A stretch of DNA of 64,000 nucleotides from an uncultured Actinomycetes bacterium (GTDB taxonomy: Bacteria > Actinomycetota > UBA4738 > JBBDTT01), in the NCBI GenBank assembly GCA_963742735.1, contig CAVUMN010000002.1:73255-137254 (forward strand). Reading direction: 5' to 3'. The notes below the pieces were generated by a model. The model ran no database searches. It saw only the letters and a program-made list of their open reading frames with translations, and had not been told where the DNA came from. Shown one piece after another: positions 6,577-23,311 of this stretch (the stretch's first letter is position 1; each line of letters begins with the position of its first letter). The position numbers and the translations under genes are program-made.

Positions 6577-7547
6577 CGGGCGCGCCGATCCGGCTGCTGT
6601 GGGGGGAGGACTCGTTCCTCGTCCGGGAGGCGGCGATCGAGGCCCTCGACGGCATCCAGCCCCGCGAGGTCGACGGCGCCGACTGGTCCGGCGGCGAGAC
6701 GGCCGACCTGGCCACGCCCTCGCTGTTCGGCGAGCCGCGCGCCCTGCTGATCACGAACTGCCAGGACCTGACCGACGAGGGTCTCCGCGAGCTGCGGACG
6801 TACGTGCTCTCGCCCTCGCCCGACGCGACCCTGGTCGTCACCGGCCGGGGGATCAAGGCCGCGCCGCCGATCGCCAAGGACTTCGAGAAGGCCGGGTTCA
6901 AGCCCGAACGCATCGAGCTGGCCCGCAAGGAGCTCTCCGGCTGGCTGGTCAAGCGGGCCCGGGCCCGGGACATCCAGCTCCGCGCGCCGGCGGCGAACAC
7001 CCTGGTCGAGCTGATCGGGGAGAGCCCGGCCGAGCTCGACCGCGCCGTGGACCAGATGGCGGCGGCGTTCCCCGGCCGGCCCATCGAGCCCGCGCTGGTC
7101 GAGCGCCAGTTCCGGGGGCTCGGCGACCACAAGACCTGGGAGGTGTGCGACAAGGCGTTCGGCGGCGACCTGTCGGGCGCGATCCGGGCGCTGCAGGCGA
7201 TGCTCGCCGGTCGGGAGGAGCCGCTGGTGATCCTCGGCGGCATCGCCGCCCGGGTCCGCGACCTCCAGCGCGTCGCCGCGGTCCCCGCCGACGTGCAGCC
7301 GAAGGACGCCGCGCGGATGGCGGGCCTCCGGTTCGAGTGGCAGTTCAAGCGCTACCGCGACACCGCCCGCCGCCAGCCGCCCGGGGCGCTCGCGTCGCTG
7401 CACCTGGCCGTGGCCAACGCCGACCGCGCGTTGAAGAACGGCGCCGGCGGCGACGTGGTCCTGCCGATGCTCCTCGCCCGCATCGCCGGCGAGGTCCCCG
7501 CCGACGCCCCCATCGAGGTCGGCTCGGTCGCCCGCGCCCTTCGCTGA
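6573..7547 (+). CDS. holA: DNA polymerase III subunit delta
   Basis: In-frame GTG at 6573 overlaps the comEC stop. The N-terminus IRLLWGEDSFLVREAAIEAL and the conserved position after comEC are typical of holA. Confidence 0.8.
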   Translation: MTGAPIRLLWGEDSFLVREAAIEALDGIQPREVDGADWSGGETADLATPSLFGEPRALLITNCQDLTDEGLRELRTYVLSPSPDATLVVTGRGIKAAPPIAKDFEKAGFKPERIELARKELSGWLVKRARARDIQLRAPAANTLVELIGESPAELDRAVDQMAAAFPGRPIEPALVERQFRGLGDHKTWEVCDKAFGGDLSGAIRALQAMLAGREEPLVILGGIAARVRDLQRVAAVPADVQPKDAARMAGLRFEWQFKRYRDTARRQPPGALASLHLAVANADRALKNGAGGDVVLPMLLARIAGEVPADAPIEVGSVARALR

Positions 7548-7634
7548 GCCCGCCCGAGCCGGGTGTGAGGCGCGCCACGGTGTGGTCGGAATCCGGCGTC
7601 TAGAATCGCGCTCCCGAAAGGACGAGTACGCCCC

Positions 7635-8519
7635 ATGGCCCCAGCCCCGCCCGTCAGGATCGTCACGGACACCACCGGCTACCTGCCGCAGGAGCTGGTT
7701 ACCGAGCATGGGATCGAGCTCGTCTCTCTCTACTACTCCTTCGACGGCGCCGAGTGGCTGAAGGAGGACGACGTCGTGGACGGCGACTGGGGGCCGTTCT
7801 ACGAACGGCTCACCTCGTCCCCGGGTCTGCCCACCACGCGGCCGCCCGAGGTCGAGGACTTCCGCGCGGTCTACGAGCCGATCCTGGCGACCGGCGCCGG
7901 CATCGTCTCGCTCCACATCTCCTCGGGCCTCTCCGAGACCTGCGCGCACGCCCGCAAGGCCGGCGAGCAGCTCGCCGACGAGGGGCTGGGCGCGGAGCGC
8001 ATCCTGGTCGTGGACGCCGCGTGCACGGGCGGCCAGCAGGGCTTGCTGGCGCTGGCGGCCGCGCGGGCGGCGGAGGGGGGCGCCGACGCCGAGGCGGTGG
8101 CCGACCACGTCCGGCGGGCCCGTCTGGAGGCCCGGAGCTGGTTCACGCTGGACACCCTGGAGTTCCTCAAGCGCGGCGGACGGATCGGCGGCGGCGCGGC
8201 GTGGCTCGGCTCGACCCTGAGGATCAAGCCCATCCTGACCATCCAGTCCGAGGTCCACGCGGTTGAGCGCGTCCGAACCCGCGAGCGCGCCGTCGAGCGC
8301 CTCATCGAGTTCGGCCGCGAGCTGCACGCCGGCGGCGCCGACGGGTACTGCGTACAGCACGCTCGCTGCGAGCCGGAGGCCCGCCACGTCGTCGACCGGC
8401 TTTCGGAGGTCTACGAGCGCCCGCCCGTGTTCGTGGGGGAGATGGGCCCGGTCCTGGGGACCCATGGCGGGCCGGGGTTCCTGGGCGTCGCCGGGTTACC
8501 ATCCGGCTTCCTCGAGTAG
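7635..8519 (+). CDS. DegV family (FakB-like fatty-acid-binding) protein, paralog 1
   Basis: 294-aa ORF: VRIVTDTTGYLP...SLHISSGLSETC...LDTLEFLKRGGRIG...GTHGGPG. TAGAAT hexamer at 7601-7606. Confidence 0.9.
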   Translation: MAPAPPVRIVTDTTGYLPQELVTEHGIELVSLYYSFDGAEWLKEDDVVDGDWGPFYERLTSSPGLPTTRPPEVEDFRAVYEPILATGAGIVSLHISSGLSETCAHARKAGEQLADEGLGAERILVVDAACTGGQQGLLALAAARAAEGGADAEAVADHVRRARLEARSWFTLDTLEFLKRGGRIGGGAAWLGSTLRIKPILTIQSEVHAVERVRTRERAVERLIEFGRELHAGGADGYCVQHARCEPEARHVVDRLSEVYERPPVFVGEMGPVLGTHGGPGFLGVAGLPSGFLE

Positions 8520-8538
8520 CCATGGAGAGCCCCAAGCC

Positions 8539-9417
8539 ATGACGACGCCGGTCACGGTGGTCACCGACACCACGGCCTACCTGCCGCGCGAGACGGTGGA
8601 CAAGCACGGCCTGCGCGTGATCTCCCTCTACTACTCGTTCGGCAACGACGAGTGGATCAAGGAGAGCGACCACGACGGCGGCGACTGGGGATCGTTCTAC
8701 GAGCGCCTGTCGAGCTCCGACACCCTCCCCACCACCCAGCCCCCCACGGTCGAGGACTTCCGTGCGGTCTACGAGCCCCTCCTGGCGGAGGGCGGAAGCG
8801 TGGTCTCGATCCACCTGTCGTCGGTGCTGTCGGAGACGTGCGCCAACGCCCGCAAGGCGGTGGAGGAGCTCACCGAGGCCAGCCGGGGCGGGGACCGAGT
8901 CCGGGTGATCGACTCGGCGAGCACCGCGGTCCAGGAAGGGCTGTTGGCCCTGGCCGCGGCGCATGCCGCCGGGGAGGGCAAGGACGCGGACTCGGTCACG
9001 GAGGTGATCCGGTCCGCGCGGGCCGAGGCCAAGAACTGGTTCGTGCTCGACACCCTGGAGTACCTGAAGCGCGGCGGCCGGATCGGCGGCGCGACGGCGT
9101 GGATGGGGTCGGCGCTGCAGGTGAAGCCGGTCTTGACCCTCGAGTCGGGGATCCGCGCGGTGGAGCGCGTTCGGACGGCCGACAAGGCGTTCGTGCGCCT
9201 GGTCGAGTACGGCCACCAGCTCCACGGCGCCGGGGCCGACGCGTGGGCCGTGCAGCACTCCCGGCGGGAGGACGACGCCCGCAAGCTGATCGACCGCCTC
9301 TCCCACGTGTTCGGCCGCGCGCCCGAGTTCGTCTCCGAGGTAGGCCCGGTCATCGGGACGCACGCCGGTCCGGGCGCGTTCGGCCTCGGTGGCATCCCCT
9401 CCAGGTTCCTCGGCTAG
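8539..9417 (+). CDS. DegV family protein, paralog 2
   Basis: ATG at 8539 (GGAGAG 9 nt upstream), in frame with ORF 8263..9417. MTTPVTVVTDTTAYLP...LDTLEYLKRGGRIG...GTHAGPG. Confidence 0.9.
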   Translation: MTTPVTVVTDTTAYLPRETVDKHGLRVISLYYSFGNDEWIKESDHDGGDWGSFYERLSSSDTLPTTQPPTVEDFRAVYEPLLAEGGSVVSIHLSSVLSETCANARKAVEELTEASRGGDRVRVIDSASTAVQEGLLALAAAHAAGEGKDADSVTEVIRSARAEAKNWFVLDTLEYLKRGGRIGGATAWMGSALQVKPVLTLESGIRAVERVRTADKAFVRLVEYGHQLHGAGADAWAVQHSRREDDARKLIDRLSHVFGRAPEFVSEVGPVIGTHAGPGAFGLGGIPSRFLG

Positions 9418-9565
9418 CTCTCCAGAAAGAGACCAGGGTCACAGTGTGCTCAAGGTCGGTCACTCTTCCCGTTCCGTACGGGCAGGACTAGAATGTGCTT
9501 GGTTCGAAGTAACTAGTCACCCGACACAGGAGCGCCCCGATGATCGAGCCACGCGAGGTCCCATC

Positions 9566-10444
9566 GTGACCTCGCCCGTCACGGTCGTCACCGACAGCAC
9601 GGCCTACCTCCCGCGCGAGCTCATCGCCAAGCACGGGATCGAGCTCATCTCCCTGTACTACAGCTTCGACGGCGTCGAGTGGCTGAAGGAGGGCGACGTC
9701 GAGGGCGAGGACTGGGGCCCGTTCTACGATCGCCTGGTCGCGTCCGAGACGATGCCGACCACCCGGCCCCCGCACGTCGAGGACTTCCGCGCGCTGTACG
9801 AGCCGATCCTGGCCGAGGGGCGAAGCATCGTCTCGATCCATCTGTCCTCCGGGCTGTCCGAGACGTGCGACCACGCGCGCAAGGCCGTGGAGGAGCTCAC
9901 CGAGGAGGGCCTCGGCGGGGAGCGGGTGCACGTGGTCGACTCGGCGAGCGCGTGCCTGCAGCAGGCTCTGCTCGTGCTGGTTGCCGCCCACGCCGCGGCC
10001 GAGGGAGGCGACCCCGACACGGTCTTCGACCAGGTCCGCCGGGCCCGGGTCGAGGCGCGCAACTGGTTCGCCCTCGACACGCTCGAGTTCCTGAAGCGCG
10101 GCGGCCGGGTCGGCGGCGCCGCGGCCTGGCTGGGCTCGACGCTGAAGATCAAGCCCATCCTGACCGTGGAGTCGGAGATCAAGGCCGTCGAACGGGTGCG
10201 AACCTCCGACCGCGCGTTCGAGCGCCTGATCGAGTGCGGGCGCCAGCTCCACGGCGCGGGCGCGGACGCCTACGTCGTCCAGCACGCCCGCGCGGGGAAG
10301 GAGGCGCAGGTCCTGAGCGAGCGGCTGCACGAGGTCTTCGGCAGGCCGCCGGTGATGATGTCTGAGGTCGGGCCGGTCATCGGCACGCACACGGGGCCGG
10401 GACTGCTCGGCGTGGGCGGACTCCCGTCCAGATTCCTGGAGTAG
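9566..10444 (+). CDS. DegV family protein, paralog 3
   Basis: GTG at 9566 (GAGG upstream), in frame with ORF 9389..10444. VTSPVTVVTDSTAYLP...LDTLEFLKRGGRVG...GTHTGPG. Confidence 0.9.
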   Translation: MTSPVTVVTDSTAYLPRELIAKHGIELISLYYSFDGVEWLKEGDVEGEDWGPFYDRLVASETMPTTRPPHVEDFRALYEPILAEGRSIVSIHLSSGLSETCDHARKAVEELTEEGLGGERVHVVDSASACLQQALLVLVAAHAAAEGGDPDTVFDQVRRARVEARNWFALDTLEFLKRGGRVGGAAAWLGSTLKIKPILTVESEIKAVERVRTSDRAFERLIECGRQLHGAGADAYVVQHARAGKEAQVLSERLHEVFGRPPVMMSEVGPVIGTHTGPGLLGVGGLPSRFLE

Positions 10445-10448
10445 GGCG

Positions 10449-13400
10449 ATGAACGAGCTGAGCGCCTCCTCGAGCTCGTCGGTCCCCTGCCCGCGGTGCG
10501 GCCGCGGGAACCGGGACACGGCCAAGTTCTGCAAGGGATGCGGCCTGTCCTTCGCGCCGGAGATCACCTGCGTGAGCTGCGGCAGCAAGCTCGAGGCCGA
10601 CGCCGTCTTCTGCGACGAGTGCGGCACCGCGGTCACGGCCTCCCAGCCGGCGGTGAAGGCCCCGGTCCGCGAGTCGGCTCGACTGCCGGAGACCTTTGGG
10701 GGCGGCCGCTACAAGGTCGTCCGGTTCCTGGGCGAGGGGGGACGCAAGCGGGTCTACCTGGCCGAGGACACCCGGCTGACCCGTGAGGTCGCCGTCAGCG
10801 TCTTCAAGGCCGAGGGGGTGGACGAGACGGCGCTGATTCGCGCCCGGCGCGAGGCCGAGGCGATGGGCAAGCTCGGCGACCATCCCAACATCGTCACGAT
10901 CTACGACTTCGGCGAGGAGGACGGCGGCTTGTTCCTCGTCAGTCAGTACATGTCGGGAGGCGACCTCTCGGGCATGCTCTCCCAGGCCCCGGACCGCCGG
11001 CTGGCGATCGCCGAGGTGGCGCGGATCTCCACGGAGATCGCCCGCGGCCTGGAGCACGCGCACGCGAACGGCGTGATCCACCGCGACCTCAAGCCCCAGA
11101 ACGTGTGGCTGTCCCCGGACGGGACCGCCAAGCTCGGCGACTTCGGCCTGGCCCTCGCCGCCGACCGCTCCCGCCTGACCGTGGACGGGGCGATGGTCGG
11201 GACGGTCGCGTACATGCCGCCCGAGCAGGGTCTGGGCCGGCCGGCCGACGAGCGGTCGGACCTCTACTCCCTGGGCGCGGTGATGTACGAGCTGATCTGT
11301 GGGGTCCCGCCGTTCACCGGCGGGGACGCCGCGGCGATCATCTCCCAGCACGTCAGCACCGTTCCCGTCGGCCCCAGCTGGCACCGCTCCGACCTGCCCA
11401 CCGCGCTCGAGCGGCTGGTGCTGAAGCTCCTGGCGAAGACCCCTGATGAGCGGTTCCAGTCGGCCACCGAGACCCGCGAGGCACTCCAGGCCATCGAGTC
11501 GGCGTCGGGGGTCGCGCCGGCGCCCGCCGAAGGCACGGTCGCCCTCGAGCGTCTGACCGACGGCATCTTCCTTGGCCGGGAGTCCGAGATGAAGGAGCTT
11601 CGGGCGGCGCTCGACGAGTCGATCGCCGGTCGAGGGCACGTAACCCTCATTGCCGGCGACGCCGGGATCGGCAAGACGCGGCTGGCGACGGAGGTCAAGG
11701 CGTACGCCGAGCTCCGGGGCGCCCGGGTGCTCTCCGGCCGCTGTCACGCCGGCGAGGGCGCGCCGCCGTACTGGCCCTGGGTCCAGGTGATCCGCACGTA
11801 CGTCCGCGAGCGCAAGGCCGAGGAGCTCCTGGCCGAGCTCGGCTCCGGCGCCACCGACATCGCCCAGGTCGTCTCCGACGTCCGGGCCTGCCTGCCCGAC
11901 CTCCCCGAGCCGCAGGTCCTGGACCCCGACCAGGCCCGGTTCCGGCTGTTCGACGCCGTCACCACGTTCCTGCGCAACGCCTCGAGCACCGGCCCGCTGG
12001 CGATCTTCATCGAGGACCTGCACCGCGCGGACGAGCCCTCGCGCGAGCTGCTGGACTTCGTATCCCGGGAGCTCGGCGGCGCGCGGATCTTCCTGCTCGG
12101 CACCTATCGCGACACCGAGCTCGGCGAGGACCACGCGCTGAACGAGCTCCACGCCTCACTGTCCCGCGAGCGCAATTACTCGCGCCTGCGCCTCCGGGGC
12201 CTGAACGAGCGCGAGGTCAAGGCGCTCCTGGAGGACGTGTCCCGCCAGACCCTGGAGACCACCCAGGAGCTCGCGCTGGTCGACGCGGTCTTCCGCGAGT
12301 CCGACGGCAACCCGTTCTTCATCGAAGAGATCCTGCGGACGCTGCTCGAGTCGGAGGTCATCTACCTGCGCGAGGGCAAGTGGGTGAGCGACGCGACCCA
12401 CATGAGCGACCTGTCGATCCCGAAGTCCATCCGCGAGCTCGTGGAACAGCGCCTGGCCCGGCTGCCCGAGGAGAGCCGGGAGCTCCTGTCGATCGCGTCG
12501 GTCATCGGCTACGAGTTCGACATGCAGACCCTGGAGACGGTGGCCGGCATCCCCGTGGCCTCGGTGTTCGACCGGGTGCGGGCGGCCGTGGACGCCGCCA
12601 TCGTCTCGCCGGTCCCCGACGAGCCCAACCGGTACCGGTTCGCGTACGGCGCCACGCGCGACGCGCTCTACGAGGAGCTTCCCGAGTCCCGCCGCTTCGA
12701 GCTGCACCGGGCCATCGGCGAGGCCCTCGAGGAGATGTACGACGACCGCATCGAGTCCCACTTGGCCGAGCTGGCCCACCACTTCGCGCTCGCCGCCCCG
12801 CTCGGCCTGGCCGGCAAGGCCGCCGACTACTCGTGGTGGGCCGGCGAGCGAGCCGCCACGCTGGCCGCCCACGAGGAAGCGGTCCTGCACTTCACCCGGA
12901 CCATCCAGCTGTTCGACACCTTGACCGAGGAGGAGCCCACCCGGCGGTGCGAGCTGCTCATCGTCCTCGGCGAGTCGCGGTGGCGGGCCGGGGACGTGCG
13001 GGGGGCGAAGGAGACGTTCCTCAAGGCTGCCGAGGCCGCCGAGAAGCACGCGCTGCGCGACCAGTACGCGCGGGCGGCGCTCGGCTTCGCCGGCGGGCCC
13101 GGCGGGTTCTCCGCCGCCGACAAGCCGGACGACCAGCTGGTCGAGCTGCTGCGCACGGCGCTCCGCGGCCTGTCCGAGCGCGACAGCCTGCTGCGCGTGC
13201 GGCTGCTGGCGCGCCTGTCCCTCGAGATGCGCCTGACCACCGACGCCGTGGAGCCGGACAAGCTCTCCCGCGAGGCGCTGGAGATGGCCGAGCGGCTGGG
13301 CGACGCGCGGATCACGCTGCTGGCGATGTACAGCCGCCAGTGGGCGACGATGGGGCCCGACGGGCTCGAGGACGATCTGACCGCCGGCGAGGAGATCGTC

Positions 13401-14960
13401 CGGCTGGCCCGGGTGGTCGGCGACAAGGAGATGGACTTCCACGGCCATCACCTCCGGATCCACGGGTTCCTCGCCCTGGGCGACATGGTCTCGGTCGACC
13501 GCGAGATCCGCAGCTGCGAGAAGCTGGCCCGCGAGCTGCGCCAGCCGTACTACGAGTGGCACGTGGCGGTGTTCAGGGTGATGCGGGCTCTCATGCAGGG
13601 ACGGTTCGACGAGGCCGGCCGGCTGGCGAGCTCCGCGGCGGCGATCGGTGCGCGAAGCCAGCCGGAGATCGCCACCACCGTGTTCGGCGTGCACGCCCTG
13701 CTCGGGAGCCTCCACACCAACTCGATGGCCGACCTGGTCCCGGGGGGCGAGCTCTTCGCCACGAACTATCCCCACTCGGCGTGGCCCTCGGCCTACGCCT
13801 GGATTCTCACCGAGGTCGGGGAGAACGCCAAGGCCCGCCCGGTGTTCGACGGCGTGGCCCGTGACCGTTTCGCCGGCCTGCGCCGGGACTCGAATTGGCT
13901 GACCGCCATGACGTGCGGCTCCCTGGCGTGTAGCGCCCTCGGCGACGAGGAGGCGGCCGCCGTCATGTACGAGCTGCTCTCGCCCTACGCCGACTACTGC
14001 ACGTCGATCCTGACCGCCGCGGCGTTCGTGGGCTCGATCCATATGTACCTGGGGTTCCTGGCCGAGACCATGCGCCACCTGGACACCGCGATCGACCACT
14101 TCCAGAAGGGCATCGAGGTGAACGAGCGGATCGGCGCGTACCTCCTGGTTCCGCGGACCTACTTCGGTCTGGCGAGGGCCCTGCTCGCCCGGGACGGGGC
14201 CGGCGACCGGGAGCGCGCGTCGCAGGCCATCGAGAAGGGGCTGGATCGAGCCCGCGAGGTGCAGATGCCGGGCGAGGTCGAGCGCCTGCTGGGGCTGAAG
14301 CTCGGCGGGCAGGGGATCACCTCGATCGACACACAGGCGTCGATCTACCTGGTGGCGAAGTCGGTGGAGCAGGCCCGGCCCGACCTCACCCGCGCCGTCG
14401 CGCCGGACGGGACCGTGACGATCATGTTCTCCGACATCGAGGACTCAACGGTTCTCACCGAGCGGCTCGGAGACCGGCAGTGGCTGGAACTCCTGGAGGG
14501 GCACAACCAGATCATCCGCGAGAACTGCGCGAAGCATGACGGCTACACGGTCAAGTCGCAGGGCGACGGCTTCATGCTCGCCTTCGCCAGCGCCCGCAAG
14601 GCCATCCACTGTGCGATCGACGTGCAGCGGGCGATGGCGGAGCACCGCGGTGCGCACCCCGAGGCGCCCCTCAAGGTCCGCATCGGGCTGCACACCGGCG
14701 AAACGCTTCGCTCCGAGGAGGACTTCTTCGGCAAGAACGTTATCCTCGCCGCTCGGATAGCCGCCCAGGCGACCGGGGACCAGATCCTGGTGTCGTGGCT
14801 GCTCCGCGAGCTCGTGTCGAGCACCGGTGAGTTCGGGTTCGGCAACGAACGCGAGCTGGAGCTGAAGGGCCTCTCCGGCAGCTATCGAGTCTTCGAGGTC
14901 CAGTGGGATGGCGCTACCGCGCCGGGAGCCGCACCTGCAGTGAGCTCACCTCGATCCTGA
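10449..14960 (+). CDS. multidomain signalling protein: double zinc ribbon - Ser/Thr protein kinase - STAND/AAA ATPase - TPR-like helical repeats - class III adenylate/guanylate cyclase
   Basis: 1503-aa ORF. Zinc ribbons: CPRCG..FCKGCG and CVSCG..FCDECG. Kinase: HRDLKPQNVW, DFGLA, YMPPEQ. ATPase: Walker A GDAGIGKTRLA and Walker B-like LAIFIEDLHRADEPS. Cyclase: TIMFSDIEDST...KSQGDGFMLAF...RIGLHTGE...GKNVILAARI. Confidence 0.9.
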   Translation: MNELSASSSSSVPCPRCGRGNRDTAKFCKGCGLSFAPEITCVSCGSKLEADAVFCDECGTAVTASQPAVKAPVRESARLPETFGGGRYKVVRFLGEGGRKRVYLAEDTRLTREVAVSVFKAEGVDETALIRARREAEAMGKLGDHPNIVTIYDFGEEDGGLFLVSQYMSGGDLSGMLSQAPDRRLAIAEVARISTEIARGLEHAHANGVIHRDLKPQNVWLSPDGTAKLGDFGLALAADRSRLTVDGAMVGTVAYMPPEQGLGRPADERSDLYSLGAVMYELICGVPPFTGGDAAAIISQHVSTVPVGPSWHRSDLPTALERLVLKLLAKTPDERFQSATETREALQAIESASGVAPAPAEGTVALERLTDGIFLGRESEMKELRAALDESIAGRGHVTLIAGDAGIGKTRLATEVKAYAELRGARVLSGRCHAGEGAPPYWPWVQVIRTYVRERKAEELLAELGSGATDIAQVVSDVRACLPDLPEPQVLDPDQARFRLFDAVTTFLRNASSTGPLAIFIEDLHRADEPSRELLDFVSRELGGARIFLLGTYRDTELGEDHALNELHASLSRERNYSRLRLRGLNEREVKALLEDVSRQTLETTQELALVDAVFRESDGNPFFIEEILRTLLESEVIYLREGKWVSDATHMSDLSIPKSIRELVEQRLARLPEESRELLSIASVIGYEFDMQTLETVAGIPVASVFDRVRAAVDAAIVSPVPDEPNRYRFAYGATRDALYEELPESRRFELHRAIGEALEEMYDDRIESHLAELAHHFALAAPLGLAGKAADYSWWAGERAATLAAHEEAVLHFTRTIQLFDTLTEEEPTRRCELLIVLGESRWRAGDVRGAKETFLKAAEAAEKHALRDQYARAALGFAGGPGGFSAADKPDDQLVELLRTALRGLSERDSLLRVRLLARLSLEMRLTTDAVEPDKLSREALEMAERLGDARITLLAMYSRQWATMGPDGLEDDLTAGEEIVRLARVVGDKEMDFHGHHLRIHGFLALGDMVSVDREIRSCEKLARELRQPYYEWHVAVFRVMRALMQGRFDEAGRLASSAAAIGARSQPEIATTVFGVHALLGSLHTNSMADLVPGGELFATNYPHSAWPSAYAWILTEVGENAKARPVFDGVARDRFAGLRRDSNWLTAMTCGSLACSALGDEEAAAVMYELLSPYADYCTSILTAAAFVGSIHMYLGFLAETMRHLDTAIDHFQKGIEVNERIGAYLLVPRTYFGLARALLARDGAGDRERASQAIEKGLDRAREVQMPGEVERLLGLKLGGQGITSIDTQASIYLVAKSVEQARPDLTRAVAPDGTVTIMFSDIEDSTVLTERLGDRQWLELLEGHNQIIRENCAKHDGYTVKSQGDGFMLAFASARKAIHCAIDVQRAMAEHRGAHPEAPLKVRIGLHTGETLRSEEDFFGKNVILAARIAAQATGDQILVSWLLRELVSSTGEFGFGNERELELKGLSGSYRVFEVQWDGATAPGAAPAVSSPRS

Positions 14961-16722
14961 ACCAGCCGTTCGACGGGCGCGCGTAGGGCGCGTCCGCGCC
15001 GACGAGCTCGAGCACGGCCGAGTTACCTTTCGCGAAGCGCCAGGCTCCGGGGTGCAGCCACCACGCGTTCGGACCATTCGCCGGGCGGTACGTACCCCGC
15101 GCGACCAAACGCTGCGACCCACCTCCCGGGGCGACGTCCCACAGGCGCGCGACGAGCTGGGCGTGCTCGGCCGGGACGCCGGTGACCGTCAGGTCGGCGG
15201 TGAGCCGTGGCGCACCGATCAGCGTCCACGCCGGGGCGCCCTCCTCCTTGATCACGTAGCGCGCGGTGCCGGGGGCGGTCTCGGCCGGCGTCTCGGCACA
15301 GACCGTCCCGGTCGCGGGGTCGATGGCCAGGGCCACGCGGGGGTCGCCGCTCCCCGAGACGACCGTCCGGGACCCGGTCGTCGCGAACACCACCTGCCGG
15401 CGGGCCAGGGCCGCGAACGTCGGGGCGACGTACGGCCCGAGGCTGGGCTCCGTCGCCGGACAGGTGACCACATAGGCCGTCACCCCCAGCCGCGGCGAGC
15501 CCTCGCCCTTCAGGTAGCGGTCGAACCAGCCGTGGATCCGCGCCAGCAGCTCGGCCCGCTCAACCGGCTTCTGCGCCGAGCGCTGGTGGCCGAAGTCGCC
15601 GAAGAAGAGCGACAGCGGCACCTTTGGATACATCCGGCGCATGCGGTTCGCGAAGCGCAGGGCCTCGTCCACCGGGAACAGGTCGTCGGTGAAGCCCGAG
15701 GCGATGAAGAGCGGGGGTGGGGGGCGGCTCGGGTCGATGAAGTACGCGGAGTGGTAGTCGCGTGCCACGCGAACGATGTCCGTCGCGACGGGGTCGGTGT
15801 ACGGCTCGCCCAGGTCGATGCGCGCCACCGACCGCTGGATCTCGGCCTCCGGGTCGGTCCCCGGCAGGGCCAGGAAGCCCATCGGGCGGCCCGGGATGAA
15901 CGGCTCGCCCACCGGCTGGCCGGGACCGATCGCGTTCTGGGCCGCGAGGAGGATCCCGTTCACGAACGATCCCTTCGGCACACCGATCGGGGAGTGGGCG
16001 ACGGCGGCGCCGGTGACGCCGGTCGGTGAGACGCGCCCGTTCGGGGCGGCGGCGGTGACCAGGTCGCTCCACGGGATCACCGGCGCGGCCGCCGCGATCC
16101 GTAGGGGCCGGCCCGCCGGGCTCCGCCACGGGACCAGGCGGCCGTCCGGCAGCATGACCCGGTCCCGCAACGCGGCCAGCATCAGCGTCTGCCCGCCGCC
16201 GTAGGAGTCGGCGGTCACGCCGATCCGGCCCGCGGCGGCCACGCCCTCGTCCACCAGGCGGCCGATCAGGTGCTGCGCGTCCCGCACCTCGTAGCGGACG
16301 TCCGCCAGGTGGAGGTACCCGCCCAGGCAGGCCTCGGGGCTCGCCGCGCGCGACTCGGGCGTGCCGCACGACCCCCACAGCCCGCGCGCGGTGAACGTGA
16401 GGACCGCGTATCCCTCCCGGGCCCACGCGTAGGCGTTGTCGGTGTACGCGGTGGAGGCCGGGTCCAGGTACTCGTGCTTCGAGTTGCCGAAGCCGTTGAG
16501 CTCGACGACCAGGGGAAGGTCGCGGGCGCCCTCGGCGGGCAGCGTCACGGTCGTGTCGAGGGGCACGCCGTCCCACGTCTCGGCCAGCCCCGAGCACAGG
16601 TACACGCCCTCCGCCGGCCCGCAGTCGGTCAGCCCCAGCGGGGGTGCGGACGCGGTGGCGGTGCCGGCCGGCATCCCCAGCACGAGCGAGACGGCCAGCG
16701 CGAGTGGGCGGGCTCGACGCAA
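14914..16722 (-). CDS. secreted CocE/NonD-type alpha/beta hydrolase (Xaa-Pro dipeptidyl-peptidase-like)
   Basis: ORF 14914..17061. Nucleophile elbow GVTADSYGGGQT. A TTG at 16722 gives the signal peptide MRRARPLALAVSLVLGMPAGTATASA. The alternative ATG at 16674 would remove it, so the start is uncertain. Confidence 0.7.
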   Translation of the reverse strand: MRRARPLALAVSLVLGMPAGTATASAPPLGLTDCGPAEGVYLCSGLAETWDGVPLDTTVTLPAEGARDLPLVVELNGFGNSKHEYLDPASTAYTDNAYAWAREGYAVLTFTARGLWGSCGTPESRAASPEACLGGYLHLADVRYEVRDAQHLIGRLVDEGVAAAGRIGVTADSYGGGQTLMLAALRDRVMLPDGRLVPWRSPAGRPLRIAAAAPVIPWSDLVTAAAPNGRVSPTGVTGAAVAHSPIGVPKGSFVNGILLAAQNAIGPGQPVGEPFIPGRPMGFLALPGTDPEAEIQRSVARIDLGEPYTDPVATDIVRVARDYHSAYFIDPSRPPPPLFIASGFTDDLFPVDEALRFANRMRRMYPKVPLSLFFGDFGHQRSAQKPVERAELLARIHGWFDRYLKGEGSPRLGVTAYVVTCPATEPSLGPYVAPTFAALARRQVVFATTGSRTVVSGSGDPRVALAIDPATGTVCAETPAETAPGTARYVIKEEGAPAWTLIGAPRLTADLTVTGVPAEHAQLVARLWDVAPGGGSQRLVARGTYRPANGPNAWWLHPGAWRFAKGNSAVLELVGADAPYARPSNGWFRIEVSSLQVRLPAR

Positions 16723-16858
16723 GGAGAGGATTGTGACGCGTTGGCGGGGGTTGCGGAAATGGGCACCTTGACCGGCGTTCGCCCCAGTGATTGGGTAATC
16801 GTCAGATTTGTCCAACTGAGCTGGACTGCGCTCCGCGGTCCCGAGGGGAGAAGGCACC

Positions 16859-18400
16859 ATGCGTGCTCGGTCGATCGCTCTGCTCAGCATCCTGACCATT
16901 GTCGCAAGCATGTTCGGCATCACCACGGCGACGGCCGGCGGGCCGATCACGATCATGGTCGACGACGACGGCATGGCCGTCCCGGGGAACTGTGGGTCCA
17001 CGACGGTGACCCACGACACCATCCAGGAAGCGGTGGACGCGGCGCTGGCCGGGGACACCATCAGCGTCTGCCCGGGGGACTACCCCGACCCGGTCAACGT
17101 GGACAAGACCCTGGAGATCCTGGGTGCCCAGGCCGGGGTCGACGCCCGCACCCGGCCGGGGACGCTCTCCTTGGAATCCGCCGTGGGGCCGGAAGGTGAG
17201 AGCTTGCTGGGATTCTTCGTCACGGCCCCGAACGTGGTCATCTCCGGGTTCATGTTCATCGGCTGGTCCGACGCCGTCAGGAGCACCTCGGAGGCCGCGA
17301 GCCTCCGGGTCCTCGACAGCATCTTCTCCGAGAACTTCGCCGGTCTCCGGATCCAGTCGAACAACAGCCTGGCCCGTCGGAACCTGTTCGCCGACAACTT
17401 CGTCGGCATCCTGATGTTGGGCGGGACGAAGGCCCTCTTCACGCTGAACGACTTCCTGGGCAACGACGTCGGGATCGACCTCGAGGGGGACACGGACGAC
17501 TTCACCGGTCAGGGAGAGCCGCCTCCCATCAATCCCTTCCCGACGGACGTCCGGATCCTGCGGAACGAATTCCTGGGCCCCGATCTGGGTCCCGGCGAGG
17601 TGGGGACCAACACCATCTCGCAGACCGTGGGGATCGAGGCCTCGAGCACGACCGGCCTGATCATCACGGAGAACACCATCTCCGAGGTCCTGATCGGGAT
17701 ATGGCTCGCCGGAGGCACCGACGCGACGACCGTCGAGCTGAACGACGTGAGCGCATTCGATGTGGACCTCCTCCTCGATGACGGCGGGCAGATCAGCACC
17801 ACCGACGTCTGCTGTGCGCCGAACTCGAACGTGACGGTCAAGTCCAATCGCCTCACGAACAGCGGCTCGGGCATCGCGATCTTCTCCCTGACCGGGTCCA
17901 TGGTCGTGTCCCGCAACACCATCACGGGGAACAACGGCGGGATCTTCAACGACTCCGGCGCCCAGGTGAACGCGGCCGAGAACTGGTGGGGCGCCGCCTC
18001 CGGCCCCTCGGACTGGTCCACGGGGACCGGCGACCCGGTGTCGCCGGACGTTCGGTTCTTCCCGTGGTCCACGAACGCGACGTTCACGGCGTTCTCCAAG
18101 TGCAAGAACACGCCGACGGCCGCGAACCAGACCATCAACGGGACCACCGGCAACGACATCCTGTGCGGCGGCGGCGGTCAGGACACCATCGACGGCAAGG
18201 CGGGTAACGACCTCATCCTGGGCGACGCCGGTAGCGACATCCTGATGGGTGCGCTGGGCGCCGACGCCATTCTGGGCGGCCAGGGAGACGACACCCTCAA
18301 CGGCAACGCCGGGTTCGATCACCTGCAGGGACAGTCCAACTCCGACTCGTGTCTGGTCGGGGTGGACGGAGGACAGACGGCCACCTGCGAAGGACCCTGA
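16859..18400 (+). CDS. secreted parallel beta-helix repeat protein with C-terminal RTX (GGxGxD) calcium-binding repeats, paralog A
   Basis: 513-aa ORF. Signal peptide MRARSIALLSILTIVASMFGITTATAGG. PbH1-like N..x.N..GI repeats, the NAAENWWG motif, and seven nonapeptides GTTGNDILC GGGGQDTID GKAGNDLIL GDAGSDILM ... Confidence 0.85.
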   Translation: MRARSIALLSILTIVASMFGITTATAGGPITIMVDDDGMAVPGNCGSTTVTHDTIQEAVDAALAGDTISVCPGDYPDPVNVDKTLEILGAQAGVDARTRPGTLSLESAVGPEGESLLGFFVTAPNVVISGFMFIGWSDAVRSTSEAASLRVLDSIFSENFAGLRIQSNNSLARRNLFADNFVGILMLGGTKALFTLNDFLGNDVGIDLEGDTDDFTGQGEPPPINPFPTDVRILRNEFLGPDLGPGEVGTNTISQTVGIEASSTTGLIITENTISEVLIGIWLAGGTDATTVELNDVSAFDVDLLLDDGGQISTTDVCCAPNSNVTVKSNRLTNSGSGIAIFSLTGSMVVSRNTITGNNGGIFNDSGAQVNAAENWWGAASGPSDWSTGTGDPVSPDVRFFPWSTNATFTAFSKCKNTPTAANQTINGTTGNDILCGGGGQDTIDGKAGNDLILGDAGSDILMGALGADAILGGQGDDTLNGNAGFDHLQGQSNSDSCLVGVDGGQTATCEGP

Positions 18401-18466
18401 GCAACTGTGGCATTGTTCCGCACACACGAACGGGCGCCGGCTGGGGGCCCAGAAGGAGGAAGAACG

Positions 18467-20038
18467 ATGCGTCGTCGGTCGGTCGCTCTACTCAGCATCC
18501 TGACGCTTGCCGCGGGACTCCTCGGGATCACCGGGGCCCACGCTGGCGGCCCCATCACCCTGGCGGTGGACGACGACGGCATGGCCGTCCCGGGGAACTG
18601 CGACTCGGCGACGGCGACGTTCACCACGATCCAGGCGGCGGTGGACGCCGCCCTGGCGGGGGACACGATCCAGGTGTGCCCGGGGACCTACGAGGAACAG
18701 GTGTACGTGGACAAGACCCTGGAGCTCCTGGGGGCCCAGGCCGGGATCGACGGCCGCACCCGGCCCGGAACGCCGGCCGTGGAGTCCGTCCTGGACTCGG
18801 ACGCGGTCGACCAGACGGGCATCTACGTCGACGCCCCGAACGTGGTCATCAACGGGTTCCTCATCCAGGGCTATGACGCCGGCATCAGCACCAACATCAT
18901 CATCGACCCGGTCCCGGCCTCCGGGCTCCGGGTCCTGAACAACATCCTCTTCCAGAACGGGACCGGTCTCCAGATCGAGTCGGACAACAGCCTCGTCCGC
19001 CGAAACCTCTTCGAAGACAACGTCCTCGGCATCCACATGCTCACCGGGACGAAGGCCACGTTCACGACCAACGAGTTCCTTGGCAACCACGCCGTCGGCA
19101 TCCTGCTCGAGGGCTGCTTCGAGTACTGCGACTCGGGCATCAACGGTTTCGGCCCCCCGACGGACGTGACCATCTCGACGAACGAGATCGTGGGCCCGGA
19201 GATCACGGAGACCGGTGGCGGGGGCGGTGGGGGCCCGACGGTTGGGATCGAGGCCCACAACACGACCGGCGTGCGGATCACCGGGAACAACATCTCGGTG
19301 GTGGATTTCGGAATCTGGCTCGCTGAGGGCAACGACGCGGTGACCGTCGAGACGAACACCGTGGACGACACGGGGATCGCCCTCCTGCTGGGCTTCCTCC
19401 GGAGGGAGGTCAACACGGAGGGGATTGGCGGCGGTCCGAACTCGAACGTCACGGTCAAGTCCAACCGCTTCACCAACAGCGAAACGGGCATCGAGATCGA
19501 CGACTTCTCGCTCTCCGGGAACTTCGTCGTCTCCCGCAACACCATCACGGGGAACGATGACTGGGGGATCGTGAACTTCTCCAGTGCCCAGGTGAACGCG
19601 GCGGAGAACTGGTGGGGCGCCGCCTCGGGGCCGTCGGACTGGTCCACCGGGACCGGTGACTCGGTTTCGCCCAACGTCCGGTTCTTCCCGTGGTCCACGA
19701 ACGCCACGTTCACCACGTTCGCCAAGTGCAAGAACAAGTACACGGCCGGCAACGACACCGTCAACGGGACCACCGGCAACGACATCCTGTGCGGCGGCGG
19801 CGGTCAGGACACCATCGACGGCAAGGCGGGGAACGACCTCATCCTGGGCGACGCCGGCAGCGACATCCTGATGGGTGCGCTGGGCGCCGACGCCATCCTG
19901 GCCGGCCAGGGCGACGACACCCTGAGGGGCAACGCCGGGTTCGACTCCCTGCAGGGCCAGGCCAACTACGACTTCTGCGATGTCGGGGTCGACTCAGGAC
20001 AGATCGCCACCTGCGAGGAAGTGCCCATAGGACCCTGA
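18467..20038 (+). CDS. secreted parallel beta-helix / RTX-repeat protein, paralog B
   Basis: ATG at 18467 with AGGAGGA upstream, in frame with ORF 18407..20038. MRRRSVALLSILTLAAGLLGITGAHAGG. Same architecture as A. Confidence 0.85.
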   Translation: MRRRSVALLSILTLAAGLLGITGAHAGGPITLAVDDDGMAVPGNCDSATATFTTIQAAVDAALAGDTIQVCPGTYEEQVYVDKTLELLGAQAGIDGRTRPGTPAVESVLDSDAVDQTGIYVDAPNVVINGFLIQGYDAGISTNIIIDPVPASGLRVLNNILFQNGTGLQIESDNSLVRRNLFEDNVLGIHMLTGTKATFTTNEFLGNHAVGILLEGCFEYCDSGINGFGPPTDVTISTNEIVGPEITETGGGGGGGPTVGIEAHNTTGVRITGNNISVVDFGIWLAEGNDAVTVETNTVDDTGIALLLGFLRREVNTEGIGGGPNSNVTVKSNRFTNSETGIEIDDFSLSGNFVVSRNTITGNDDWGIVNFSSAQVNAAENWWGAASGPSDWSTGTGDSVSPNVRFFPWSTNATFTTFAKCKNKYTAGNDTVNGTTGNDILCGGGGQDTIDGKAGNDLILGDAGSDILMGALGADAILAGQGDDTLRGNAGFDSLQGQANYDFCDVGVDSGQIATCEEVPIGP

Positions 20039-20143
20039 CGAGCGCGACGGAACCCTTGACCTGATCCGGGAGGCGTGCTTGGCTTCGACTGATTTGTCCA
20101 CTTGAACCGGGCGGCGGTTGGCGGCCCCGAAGGAGGAACCACG

Positions 20144-21691
20144 ATGCGTGGCAGGTCCATCGCTCTGTTCAGCATCCTGACGCTCGTGGCGGGCCTTCTG
20201 GGCCTCACCGCGGCGTACGCCGGCGGCTCCCCGACCACCCGCGTGGTGGACGACGACGGCATGGCGGTCCTGGGGAACTGCGACTCGGCGACGGCGACCT
20301 TCTCCACGATCCAGGCGGCGGTGGACGCGGCGAACACCGCTGACACCATCAAGGTGTGTCCGGGGCTGTACGAGGAAGCGGTGGACGTGGGCAAGACCCT
20401 GGAGATCCTGGGTGCCCAGTCCGGGATCGACGGCCGCACCCGTCCCGGGACGCTCGCCGGGGAATCCGTGGTGAGCCCGCTCAATGAGCCCGGTGCGGGC
20501 TTCTACGTCAACGCCCCGAGCGTGGTCATCAACGGGTTCACCCTCCAGCTGTGGGAAGGGTCGGCCATCGACAGCACGCAGAGCCCTCCGTTCGTGGCCG
20601 CCGGTCTCCGGGTCCTGAACAACATCTTCAGGCAGAACGGAACCGGTCTCCTGATCGGCTCGGACAACAGCCTGGCCCGGCGGAACCTGTTCGAGGACAA
20701 CTTCTTCGGGATCCACATGGTCACCGGGACGAAGGCCACGTTCACGACCAATGAGTTCCTCGGCAACGAGATCGGCATCCTGCTCCAGGGGCAGATCCTT
20801 TGTCAGGGGTACTGCACCGGGGGTGCCCAGGGCTTCCCGACGGACGTCACTATCTCGACCAACGAGATCGTGGGGCCCGAGCAGGCGCCTGCCGGCTCAG
20901 GAGAGCCCACGGGGATCGAGGCCAACAACACGACCGGCCTGCGGATCATCGGCAACACCATCTCCGAGGTCGGTGCGGGCATCTGGTTGGTCGGGGGCAA
21001 CGACGCCACGACCATCGAGACGAACACCGTGACCGACACGGGACGCGCGGTCCTGCTCGGCCTCGGCATCTTCGAGAACGCGATTACCTACATCAACGCC
21101 AACCCGAACTCGAACGTGACCGTCAAGTCGAACGGCCTCACGAACGGCGGAATCGGCGTCCTGCTGGAGGAGTTCTCCCTGGAGGGATCGATGGTCGTCT
21201 CCCGCAACACGATCTCGGGCAACGAGTTCGGGATGTCCAATTTCTCGAGCACCCAGGTGAACGCGGCCGAGAACTGGTGGGGCCACGCCTCCGGCCCGTC
21301 GGAGTGGTCGAACGGGACGGGTGACGGCGTGGGAGTCGAGATCCGGTTCTTCCCGTGGGCGACCAACGCCACGTTCACCGCGTTCGCCAAGTGCAAGAAC
21401 ACGCCGACGGCCGCGAACCAGACCATCAACGGGACCACCGGCAACGACATCCTGTGCGGCGGCGGCGGTCAGGACACCATCGACGGCAAGGCCGGAAACG
21501 ACCTCATCCTGGGCGACGCCGGCAGCGACATCCTGATGGGCGCGCTCGGCGACGACGCCATCCTGGGTGGCCAGGGCGACGACACCCTGAACGGCAACGC
21601 CGGGTTCGACCACCTGCAGGGCCAGGCCAACACCGACACCTGCATCGTCGGGGTGGACGGAGGACTGACCGCCACCTGCGAGGGACCGTAA
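20144..21691 (+). CDS. secreted parallel beta-helix / RTX-repeat protein, paralog C
   Basis: ATG at 20144 with AGGAGGA upstream, in frame with ORF 20102..21691. MRGRSIALFSILTLVAGLLGLTAAYAGG. Same architecture. Confidence 0.85.
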   Translation: MRGRSIALFSILTLVAGLLGLTAAYAGGSPTTRVVDDDGMAVLGNCDSATATFSTIQAAVDAANTADTIKVCPGLYEEAVDVGKTLEILGAQSGIDGRTRPGTLAGESVVSPLNEPGAGFYVNAPSVVINGFTLQLWEGSAIDSTQSPPFVAAGLRVLNNIFRQNGTGLLIGSDNSLARRNLFEDNFFGIHMVTGTKATFTTNEFLGNEIGILLQGQILCQGYCTGGAQGFPTDVTISTNEIVGPEQAPAGSGEPTGIEANNTTGLRIIGNTISEVGAGIWLVGGNDATTIETNTVTDTGRAVLLGLGIFENAITYINANPNSNVTVKSNGLTNGGIGVLLEEFSLEGSMVVSRNTISGNEFGMSNFSSTQVNAAENWWGHASGPSEWSNGTGDGVGVEIRFFPWATNATFTAFAKCKNTPTAANQTINGTTGNDILCGGGGQDTIDGKAGNDLILGDAGSDILMGALGDDAILGGQGDDTLNGNAGFDHLQGQANTDTCIVGVDGGLTATCEGP

Positions 21692-21759
21692 GCGAAGAGG
21701 GCTCCATTCCATCGGCACGTGAACGGGCGGCGGTGGCCGGCCCAGAGGGAGGACGAACG

Positions 21760-23298
21760 ATGCGAGGACGCGCGGCTCTGCTCTGCATCCTGACCCTGGC
21801 CGGAAGCCTCTACGGGATCATCGGGGCCCAGGCCGGTCCCGGGGCGATCACCATCATGGTCGACGACGACGGTATGGCCGCGGTCGGCAACTGCGGCTCG
21901 GCCACGGTCACCCACGACACGATCCAGGAGGCGGTGGACGCCGCGATCTCCGGGGACACCATCAGGGTGTGTCCGGGGACCTACCCGGACCCGGTCCTCG
22001 TGGACAGGACCCTGGAGATCCAGGGCGCCCAGGCCGGGGTCGACGCACGCACCCGGCCCGGAACGCTCTCCGCGGAATCCGTCCTCGACGGGGTGGACGG
22101 CGAATTCGACGGGATCGCCGTCGCCGCCCCGAACGTGGTCATCTCCGGGTTCACGTTCCTCAACTGGGACCGGGCGGTGGGGACGGCGGCGAGCGCGTCG
22201 CCCGCGCTCCGGGTCCTGGACTCCATCTTCACGAACAACTTCACGGGCGTCCACATCGACTCGGACAACAGCCTGGTCCGTCGGAGCCGCTTCCAGGACG
22301 GCACCCTCGGCATCCGGATGGTCGGAGGGACGAAGGCGCTGTTCACGCTGAACGAGTTCGAGGGCAACATCGTCGGCATCCTGATCGAGGGGGGCTTCTG
22401 CGACCTCTGCGCCCAGGGAACGCCCGTGGTGAGTCTGCCTGCGGACATCCGGATTCATCGCAACGACATCCAGGGGGGCGCGGTGATTCCGACCGGACCG
22501 TTGTCTACGACGGGGATCGAGTCCGAGGCCGCGACCGGCCTGACGATCACGGAGAACACCATCTCCGGGCTCGGCCGCGGAATCTGGCTCATCGAGGGCA
22601 ACGACACGGTGACCATCGAGCTGAACGACGTGGACGACTCGACGGTCGCCCTCCTCCTGGGCTTCGGCCCGAAGGAGGTCGAAACCACGGGGATCTGCTG
22701 CTTCGGCCCGAACTCGAACATCTCGGTGAGGTCGAACCGGTTCACCAACGGGGAAACGGGCGTCCAGGTGGAGGAGGAGTCCTTCACGGGGAACTTCGTC
22801 CTCTCCCGCAACACCATCTCCGGGAACCTGGACTGGGGGATCGTGAACTTCTCGGGTGTCCAGGTGAACGCGGCGGAGAACTGGTGGGGCCACGCCTCGG
22901 GGCCCGACGACTGGTCGAACGGAACCGGTGACGACGTGTCGCCCGACGTTCGGTTCTTCCCGTGGTCCACGAACGCCACCTTCACGGCCTTCGCCAAGTG
23001 CAAGAACACGCCTACGGCCGCGAACCAGACCATCAACGGGACCACCGGCAACGACATCCTGTGCGGCGGCGGCGGTCAGGACACCATCAACGGCAAGGCC
23101 GGCAACGACCTCATCCTGGGCGACGCCGGGAGCGACATCCTGACGGGCGCGCTGGGCGACGACGCCATCCTGGGCGGCCAGGGCGACGACACCCTGAACG
23201 GCAACGCCGGGTTCGACTCCCTGCAGGGCCAGGCCAACAACGACTTCTGCGACCTCGGGGTGGACTCGGGACAGTCGGCCACCTGCGAAGGATCTTGA
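21760..23298 (+). CDS. secreted parallel beta-helix / RTX-repeat protein, paralog D
   Basis: ATG at 21760 with GGGAGGA upstream, in frame with ORF 21355..23298. MRGRAALLCILTLAGSLYGIIGAQAG. Same architecture. Confidence 0.85.
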   Translation: MRGRAALLCILTLAGSLYGIIGAQAGPGAITIMVDDDGMAAVGNCGSATVTHDTIQEAVDAAISGDTIRVCPGTYPDPVLVDRTLEIQGAQAGVDARTRPGTLSAESVLDGVDGEFDGIAVAAPNVVISGFTFLNWDRAVGTAASASPALRVLDSIFTNNFTGVHIDSDNSLVRRSRFQDGTLGIRMVGGTKALFTLNEFEGNIVGILIEGGFCDLCAQGTPVVSLPADIRIHRNDIQGGAVIPTGPLSTTGIESEAATGLTITENTISGLGRGIWLIEGNDTVTIELNDVDDSTVALLLGFGPKEVETTGICCFGPNSNISVRSNRFTNGETGVQVEEESFTGNFVLSRNTISGNLDWGIVNFSGVQVNAAENWWGHASGPDDWSNGTGDDVSPDVRFFPWSTNATFTAFAKCKNTPTAANQTINGTTGNDILCGGGGQDTINGKAGNDLILGDAGSDILTGALGDDAILGGQGDDTLNGNAGFDSLQGQANNDFCDLGVDSGQSATCEGS

Positions 23299-23311
23299 TC
23301 AGTTCGCCGGC

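Follow-up and report, generated by a model that had tools for sequence, protein, structure and literature searches.

Mosaic paralogs with a near-identical RTX module in a tandem beta-helix gene array of an uncultured actinobacterium

In the pilE/pilS system of Neisseria, in vlsE of Borrelia and in msp2 of Anaplasma, a single expression site stands beside many silent partial cassettes, and recombination events are recent and frequent. Recombination between paralogs, leading to mosaic alleles and homogenised tracts, is also described for the PE_PGRS and PE-PPE genes of Mycobacterium tuberculosis (PMC1762029, PMC13061034, PMC12046097). The AlgE genes form clusters of paralogs, seven in Azotobacter vinelandii and three in A. 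chroococcum (PMC7385640). Here, four head-to-tail paralogs, designated A-D, were analysed in a 64-kb stretch of DNA from an uncultured actinobacterium (64,000 nucleotides (nt) of contig CAVUMN010000002.1; below, the window). The predicted proteins combine a right-handed beta-helix with an RTX beta-roll. One tree shared along the whole length of A-D does not exist, and the array was very probably formed by lineage-specific tandem amplification and then reshaped by homologous recombination between misaligned copies.

All four genes lie on the plus strand at a spacing of 1608-1680 nt, in agreement with a preliminary description of this DNA that had proposed direct repeats 1.6 kb apart. Each gene is intact and has its own ribosome-binding site (RBS), of the GGAGG type, before the likely start (A 16859, B 18467, C 20144, D 21760). 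Open reading frames (ORFs) of 543, 529 and 647 amino acids (aa) in the ORF track are upstream extensions of these genes, and the 647-aa ORF (gene D) overlaps C. No further copies or fragments of A-D were found in the window. Gene coordinates are positions in the window, and alignment nt are positions in the alignment of A-D.

16859..18400, + strand: gene A, 513 aa
18467..20038, + strand: gene B, 523 aa, with the strongest recombinant signal among the four copies
20144..21691, + strand: gene C, 515 aa
21760..23298, + strand: gene D, 512 aa

On both strands, A-D are also overlapped by many long ORFs (up to 541 aa) that are antisense or out of frame, as is expected by chance at 67-71% GC; the family searches covered the plus-frame genes.

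Partner switching along genes A to D

Overall pairwise nucleotide identity among A-D is nearly even (73-78%), and the best partner shifts with position. Informative sites were defined as alignment sites with a 2-2 split, of which there are 153. Support for AB|CD, AC|BD and AD|BC was 15/21/64 over alignment nt 1-948 and 18/28/7 after nt 948. On informative sites the maximum chi-square reached 36 (permutation p <= 1e-4); for a PHI-like statistic, z was -6 against the permutation mean. At nt 949-1230, AD|BC was supported by only 3 of 38 sites (binomial p = 2.5e-4 against one third). Rate variation on a single tree flattens the site patterns and never drops the true split below one third, so that saturation alone is excluded.

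A 3SEQ-like triplet test (24 tests) identified B as C-like over nt 39-956 and as A- or D-like thereafter (p <= 5e-5), with weaker, reciprocal signals for C and D. When the breakpoint was fixed from codon positions 1 and 2 (nt 931-970), AD|BC was supported by 18 of 34 third positions before it and by 5 of 26 after it (Fisher p = 0.015). The change of best partner along the gene that had been pointed out in the preliminary description is thus beyond chance by the maximum chi-square, PHI-like and triplet tests.

Segmentation with a hidden Markov model assigned AD|BC up to about nt 948, AC|BD to nt 951-1167, AB|CD to nt 1183-1451 and AC|BD to the tail. Over the first ~900-950 nt B and C are partners, and A and D are so more weakly; later on, the partners are B and D, A and C, and A and B. 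Roughly speaking, A-D represent the four possible combinations of two 5' types (A/D, B/C) with two 3' types (A/C, B/D). The groupings first noticed by inspection are visible in the alignment, with A and D or B and C together at the N-terminus, A and C or B and D together in the tail, and a KCKN region that is identical in A, C and D and deviates in B. The main breakpoint zone lies as follows.

17692..17792, + strand: main breakpoint zone in A (alignment nt ~867-970)
19306-19409, + strand: the same zone in B
20974-21077, + strand: the same zone in C
22575-22678, + strand: the same zone in D

Gene B resembles C to about 19306-19395 and thereafter D or A, and C resembles B to about 20974-21063 and thereafter A. 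The 5' part of D is like A, and from about 22575 the gene is like B.

A search of 5.8 billion proteins returned only two close relatives from outside the window, P0005 (63% identity) and P0006 (47%), followed by proteins at 31-36%. The close family is rare, with two clusters at 50% identity. P0005 is encoded on a 4,990-bp contig (JGI sample 3300041965) with a head-to-tail array of at least four genes. Along the alignment, its identity is 85-90% with B (positions ~41-240) and then 83-90% with C (positions ~241-340), and over positions ~341-380 it is closest to A. In segment trees rooted on P0006, P0005 grouped with B over residues 106-240 (100% bootstrap) and with C over residues 241-410 (80-86% bootstrap). 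This B-like and then C-like succession indicates that segments moved between paralogs after the two lineages had split.

P0006 and every ~31-36%-identical relative inspected are single-copy, which indicates that the amplification is lineage-specific. The preliminary description had suggested that copy number may vary between strains; between lineages it does, from one copy (P0006 and the distant relatives) to at least four (the P0005 contig). The matches listed from genome and metagenome contig scans with the A-D alignment were partial and at most ~50% identical, and no arrays were among them; the P0005 contig is not among the metagenome matches listed. A 526-aa gene upstream of P0005 gave faint NosD and weak RTX matches and is not among the 120 listed homologs of A, and the P0005 array may mix more divergent subfamilies.

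RTX homogenisation and formation of the array

Amino acid divergence among the paralogs was related to divergence from the outgroup P0006, a ratio used to tell constraint from conversion (95% bootstrap intervals in brackets). The modules are given below by residues of A, with amino acid identity among A-D and the paralog/outgroup ratio.

Residues 1-27: signal peptide (Sec); identity 64%
Residues 28-105: N-cap; identity 72%, ratio 0.78
Residues 106-365: right-handed beta-helix of ~10 turns, seen as stacked three-strand turns in the AlphaFold2 model; identity 53%, ratio 0.77 (0.69-0.84)
Residues 366-420: conserved linker NAAENWWG...FFPW...KCKN; identity 82%, ratio 0.44
Residues 421-~490: RTX beta-roll; identity 94%, ratio 0.16 (0.07-0.28)
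After the RTX beta-roll: short Cys-containing tail; identity 76%, ratio 0.57

Relative to the outgroup, divergence among the copies is about one fifth as high in the RTX module as in the helix, and the two bootstrap intervals do not overlap. Coalescence in the RTX module, and less markedly in its flanks, is thus far later than in the gene bodies, a pattern typical of tracts homogenised by gene conversion. The preliminary description had proposed that both ends are homogenised. This holds for the 3' RTX end but not for the 5' end, where the N-cap has the same ratio as the helix, and to call the N-terminal module nearly identical was an overstatement at the identities of signal peptide and N-cap given above. 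The homogenised tract is located as follows.

18071..18280, + strand: homogenised linker-end/RTX tract in A (alignment nt 1261-1470)
19697-19906, + strand: the same tract in B
21362-21571, + strand: the same tract in C
22969-23178, + strand: the same tract in D

The longest exact match outside the RTX module is at most 32 nt, whereas matches of 56-106 nt occur within it for every pair. A 106-nt exact match of A (18096-18201) and C (21387-21492), reported earlier, is real and not extendable; the exact matches of all other pairs are 56-75 nt long. Taken alone, the A-C tract is weak evidence, as it lies where all copies are near-identical and variable sites are scarce (GENECONV-like test, pairwise p = 0.02, global p = 0.24). 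Global significance in the GENECONV-like longest-run test was reached for B-D only (p = 0.02). The proportion of synonymous differences (pS) is 0.11-0.13 in the RTX module compared to 0.3-0.4 elsewhere, and RTX codon identity at identical residues is 0.91 among the paralogs against an expectation of 0.62.

For the helix, the ratio of nonsynonymous to synonymous divergence (dN/dS, NG86) is about 0.5-1.1, compared to about 0.1 for the RTX module. GC content at third codon positions (GC3) is 92-93% in A-D and silent sites are roughly half-way to saturation, so that relaxed and diversifying selection are not separable by dN/dS. Positive selection in the helix, considered in view of a dN/dS of ~1 in parts of it, is for these reasons not claimed.

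Recombination among direct repeats as the source of mosaic genes, the central proposal of the preliminary description, is borne out by the incongruent sites, the triplet tests and the segment trees. Instead of congruent segments and uniform divergence, a significant breakpoint and differing regional ratios were found. The age of the exchanges is another matter. Exchanged helix tracts are now 75-91% identical, which marks the helix exchanges as old and, together with the shortness of the exact matches in the helix, leaves the idea that the cores still exchange segments unsupported. Exact matches of a length that would allow efficient recombination persist in the RTX module alone, which suggests that present recombination starts mainly there.

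Sequences upstream of and between the genes bear on the origin of the array.

16766..16858, + strand: upstream leader of A, with CCTTGACC at 16766-16773 and GATTTGTCCA at 16805-16814, then the RBS
18401..18466, + strand: A-B spacer, 66 nt, RBS GGAGGA
20039..20143, + strand: B-C spacer, 105 nt, with CCTTGACC at 20054-20061, GATTTGTCCA at 20091-20100, and the RBS
21692..21759, + strand: C-D spacer, 68 nt, RBS GGAGGA

An upstream element of ~60-70 nt, CCTTGACC ... GTGNTTGG ... GATTTGTCCA, is carried by A and C only, and its motif occurs at just these two places in the whole window. The leaders of A and C are 66% identical (105 nt compared), and the A-B and C-D spacers, which precede B and D (66-68 nt), align at 68%. 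Conservation of the leaders, noted in the preliminary description, was recovered as ~40 nt 5' of every ATG that are kept among the copies. The element before A is a candidate promoter or regulatory region of a putative A-B unit. A sigma-70 consensus scan yielded no promoter-like sites, including in the upstream element of A and C; terminator-like sites in the scan were at background level only, and Rfam gave zero matches.

The array probably started as two two-gene units, A-B and C-D. Such an origin is suggested by the upstream element found only at A and C and by spacers and tails in which A matches C and B matches D, and it would mean that the 5' kinship of B and C arose later, when adjacent genes exchanged sequence. 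By unequal crossing-over of the RecA type and by non-reciprocal gene conversion, adjacent copies would have traded ~0.9 kb at the 5' end, and the RTX module at the 3' end would have been homogenised time and again, the helix exchanges dating from a time when the copies were more alike. Present-day events would consist mainly of gain or loss of whole 1.6-kb units and of tail swaps, not of shuffling of helix turns, and the helix bodies would diverge quickly at the protein level. The proteins would be exported by Sec, and the four diverged helices, each most likely a glycan-binding or glycan-modifying surface, may provide four specificities.

Several observations weigh against this account. The topological signal lies mostly at nonsynonymous sites; third positions alone fail the maximum chi-square permutation test (p = 0.20), and no switch is seen at the 23 informative sites that are strictly synonymous. 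RTX codon identity is already 0.82 in comparison with the distant P0006. Since Gly/Asp-rich repeats use few codons, silent-site support for RTX homogenisation is modest, and the divergence ratio is preferred. P0005 differs from A-D by 4-11% of RTX amino acids and A-D differ mutually by 1-11%, so that P0005 is equally close and gives no sign of homogenisation after the lineages split. P0005 is moreover the one close outside sequence, compared as protein only, and the window comes from a single metagenome contig. Both the two-gene-unit origin and the function are inferences.

Part of this would also be expected if no recombination had taken place and regional rate shifts or parallel functional constraints had acted on old paralogs related by a near star-like tree; A and D might, for instance, have one helix function in common and B and C another. 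The predominance of nonsynonymous signal, the uninformative purely synonymous sites and the half-saturated silent sites at a GC3 of 92% all fit that account. It is nevertheless very unlikely, since AD|BC after nt 949 is rarer than one third, third positions show the switch too, P0005 shifts from B to C with high bootstrap support, and spacers and leaders match the 3' grouping.

Misassembly was considered as well, since all of the sequence comes from one metagenome contig of 224,693 bp. Paralogs or strains could have been misjoined across shared exact tracts, and RTX repeats of 56-106 nt could let a short-read assembler permute units composed of a tail, a spacer and the next 5' part. However, exact matches at the main breakpoint (alignment nt ~870-970) do not exceed 32 nt, and misjoins in the RTX module would permute or delete units and not make an internal switch. 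The ORFs are also intact and regularly spaced, and the chimeric P0005 comes from an independent sample. An artefact of this kind is very improbable, with the remaining caveat that the assignment of tails to bodies hinges on correct assembly across the 56-106-nt repeat.

The preliminary description had further compared the array to an active contingency or surface-variation locus, in which frequent, selected conversion would shuffle exposed helix turns between conserved ends serving as anchors. Mosaic genes, fast evolution of the helix with dN/dS near 1 in places, a conserved 3' module with long exact matches, and copy number that varies by lineage are all compatible with such a locus. Against it stand the age of the exchanged helix tracts, the short exact matches in the helix and a 5' end that is not homogenised. 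Silent or truncated cassettes, pseudogene donors and additional copies are absent from the 64 kb, and no phase-variable repeats were found, the 27-nt RTX periodicity being the sole simple-sequence repeat. All four genes are intact with an RBS each, and the host looks like a free-living environmental organism, with LepA relatives in metagenome-assembled genomes (MAGs) and family members from JGI, ENA and Logan metagenomes. No switch turned up at the array, where no dedicated search for invertible elements was made. The comparison is thus not upheld, and an active locus of this type has little probability.

It is also very unlikely that the RTX module and, to a smaller extent, the N-cap are built-in recombination anchors of a self-shuffling cassette set in a free-living monoderm. 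If they were, populations of an uncultured actinobacterium from soil or freshwater would generate new beta-helix binding surfaces and vary in copy number, and the array would represent a surface-diversification system built on a Sec-exported RTX module.

Under tandem amplification followed by recombination between misaligned copies, the array is a clean, statistically supported instance of segmental exchange and module-specific homogenisation in uncultured Actinomycetota. A rare family expanded from a single copy to four or more, and its helix diversified with the putative Ca2+-binding module staying near-identical. The mechanism is not new, as unequal crossing-over and gene conversion of tandem paralogs are textbook processes. 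The mosaic outcome is real yet ordinary for tandem gene families, and nothing indicates a programmed variation system.

Protein architecture and genomic setting

Protein A was modelled with AlphaFold2 at a mean pLDDT of 84 and a pTM of 0.85. Three low-confidence helix loops in the model coincide with the indel-rich variable regions, and a regular 9-residue strand spacing was observed over residues 425-508. Pfam Beta_helix/NosD (PF13229/PF05048) and HemolysinCabind scored above their gathering scores in all four proteins, with 48-90 bits for PF13229 Beta_helix (cut-off 25.9) and 47-56 bits for PF00353 HemolysinCabind (cut-off 23). RTX repeats are nonapeptides of the pattern GGxGxDxUx, and their period is 27 nt in C and D (Tandem Repeats Finder). 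In each of the four N-termini, a positively charged n-region is followed by a hydrophobic core and by AxA ahead of GG, and the Cys pairs 45/71, 415/436 and 498/510 are kept in all copies. To judge from these features, A-D are probably exported proteins with disulfide-bonded Cys pairs, and the beta-roll probably binds Ca2+. RTX repeats are here paired with a Sec signal peptide.

Extra Cys residues in the variable helix loops are themselves mosaic among A-D. A CxxC/CxxxC loop is found in B (C217/C221), C (C220/C224) and D (C214/C217), and vicinal CC in A (318/319) and D (313/314); D has both motifs.

The only invariant helix residues among 16 family members form a Gly and an Asn ladder, and no conserved catalytic centre is evident across these proteins. 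The modelled fold is suggestive of a glycan-binding or glycan-modifying role for the helix. The N-cap plus helix module is widespread (4,035 matches at E <= 1e-3), and in many matches it is iterated within proteins of 2,000-4,500 aa. Among the single-copy relatives at ~33-36% identity, P0008 (L116 5890-10080), P0011 (L118 5171-10985) and P0007 (L119 1901-6264) have a phosphodiesterase-family gene and an APS kinase gene upstream. A low-molecular-weight phosphatase gene lies downstream in L116 and L118, and in L118 a sulfotransferase gene as well. Such neighbourhoods give a hint that the wider family may be involved in the chemistry of sulfated glycans or of the envelope.

The array is flanked by a minus-strand S15/S9-type peptidase gene and by rpsT-lepA. 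Neighbours were scanned with Pfam (peptidase, kinase-cyclase, DegV, S20), and LepA and HrcA were assigned by tblastn. The closest LepA in the collection of species-representative genomes is 76% identical and belongs to MAGs. No homolog of the family was found in the LepA neighbourhoods of 80 actinobacterial loci. Horizontal transfer of the array was considered on account of its GC content (66.8% compared to 70.8%) and rejected, as GC3 is 92-93% compared to 88-97% in the neighbours. This similarity indicates that the lower GC content reflects amino-acid composition.

Two adjacent plus-strand DegV-family genes (ORFs of 384 and 351 aa) at 8263-10444 of the window form a second tandem paralog pair. 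They are followed at 10449-14960 by a gene for a 1503-aa protein with a double zinc ribbon, a Ser/Thr kinase, an AAA_16 ATPase, MalT-like TPR and, at the C-terminus, an adenylate/guanylate cyclase domain. In L036 and L037, from the closest MAGs (LepA 75-76% identical), a homolog of the minus-strand ORF 6444-8465, itself devoid of Pfam matches, is located ~400 nt upstream of lepA. The corresponding interval in the window spans ~15 kb (~8466-23311) and holds the DegV pair, the kinase-cyclase, the peptidase and the array, so that the intervening block looks lineage-specific.

Comparison with described systems

RTX toxins and other type I secretion substrates lack an N-terminal signal peptide and have a C-terminal secretion signal that is not cleaved. 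A role of this kind was rejected, since all four proteins have Sec-type N-termini and NF033943 (RTX_toxin) scored 45 bits against a cut-off of 1000. Among the immediate neighbours, the only genes scanned in this respect, there is no ABC exporter, membrane fusion or outer-membrane gene.

NosD, a periplasmic accessory protein in the maturation of nitrous-oxide reductase, resembles A-D as an exported beta-helix with PbH1 repeats, and Pfam NosD matches were obtained. The best PDB sequence match of the helix is NosD 7o0y (E about 1e-7), and a helix-only profile against PDB gave repeat-level NosD matches only, without recovering AlgE. Identity as NosD was rejected at TIGR04247 scores of 53-56 bits (cut-off 300), with neighbours unrelated to nos genes. 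NosD has no RTX module, whereas A-D do.

The cassette systems pilE/pilS, vlsE and msp2 are similar to A-D in that segmental non-reciprocal transfer gives mosaic surface-protein genes. They differ in that A-D are four complete, separately translatable genes and the events are old. The PE_PGRS and PE-PPE families share with A-D their nature as secreted or surface paralog families of high-GC Actinomycetota. A-D belong to another protein family, however, their helix events are old, and the evidence concerns paralogs and lineages and not variation within a population. Unlike for PE_PGRS/PE-PPE, no link to host immunity is suggested.

The strongest structural resemblance is to alginate-modifying enzymes. 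In the mannuronan C-5-epimerase/lyase family AlgE1-7 of A. vinelandii, as in A-D, a right-handed beta-helix precedes an RTX beta-roll. By Foldseek, the best matches in PDB were the alginate epimerase/lyase 8ja4/8jaz (beta-helix plus RTX) and the A-modules of AlgE6 and AlgE4; further matches were polysaccharide lyases and phage tailspikes, at TM-scores of about 0.3-0.45. In the AlgE comparison the TM-scores reach only 0.33-0.45. Profile comparison with PDB gave weak matches to 2pyg and to AlgE R-modules. The sequence match to the AlgE A-module was marginal (E = 4.7e-5) and was lost with the helix-only profile.

The catalytic motif of AlgE is spelled YG(F/I)DPH(D/E), also [YF]G[FI]DPH, and neither a DPH tripeptide nor the latter motif occurs in any of A-D. 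The AlgE catalytic residues are Tyr149, Asp152, His154 and Asp178 (PMC7385640). In A-D, the loop matching the catalytic site is among the most variable parts. P0006 (L014 10001-11557) has AFDPHQ at residues ~150-156, and P0007 and P0008 have RFDP, in a helix loop whose counterpart in A-D is hypervariable. We take AFDPHQ of P0006, which lies at a similar distance from the N-terminus, to resemble the AlgE DPH motif; A-D are without it.

Export also differs, as the actinobacterial proteins A-D start with a Sec signal peptide and AlgE uses a dedicated ABC exporter. A-D are further unlike AlgE in having one short RTX module and extra conserved Cys pairs. Both AlgE and A-D are nonetheless clustered paralogs whose number differs between related species or lineages, and in architecture and paralog clustering the AlgE family is the closest known analogue of this array.

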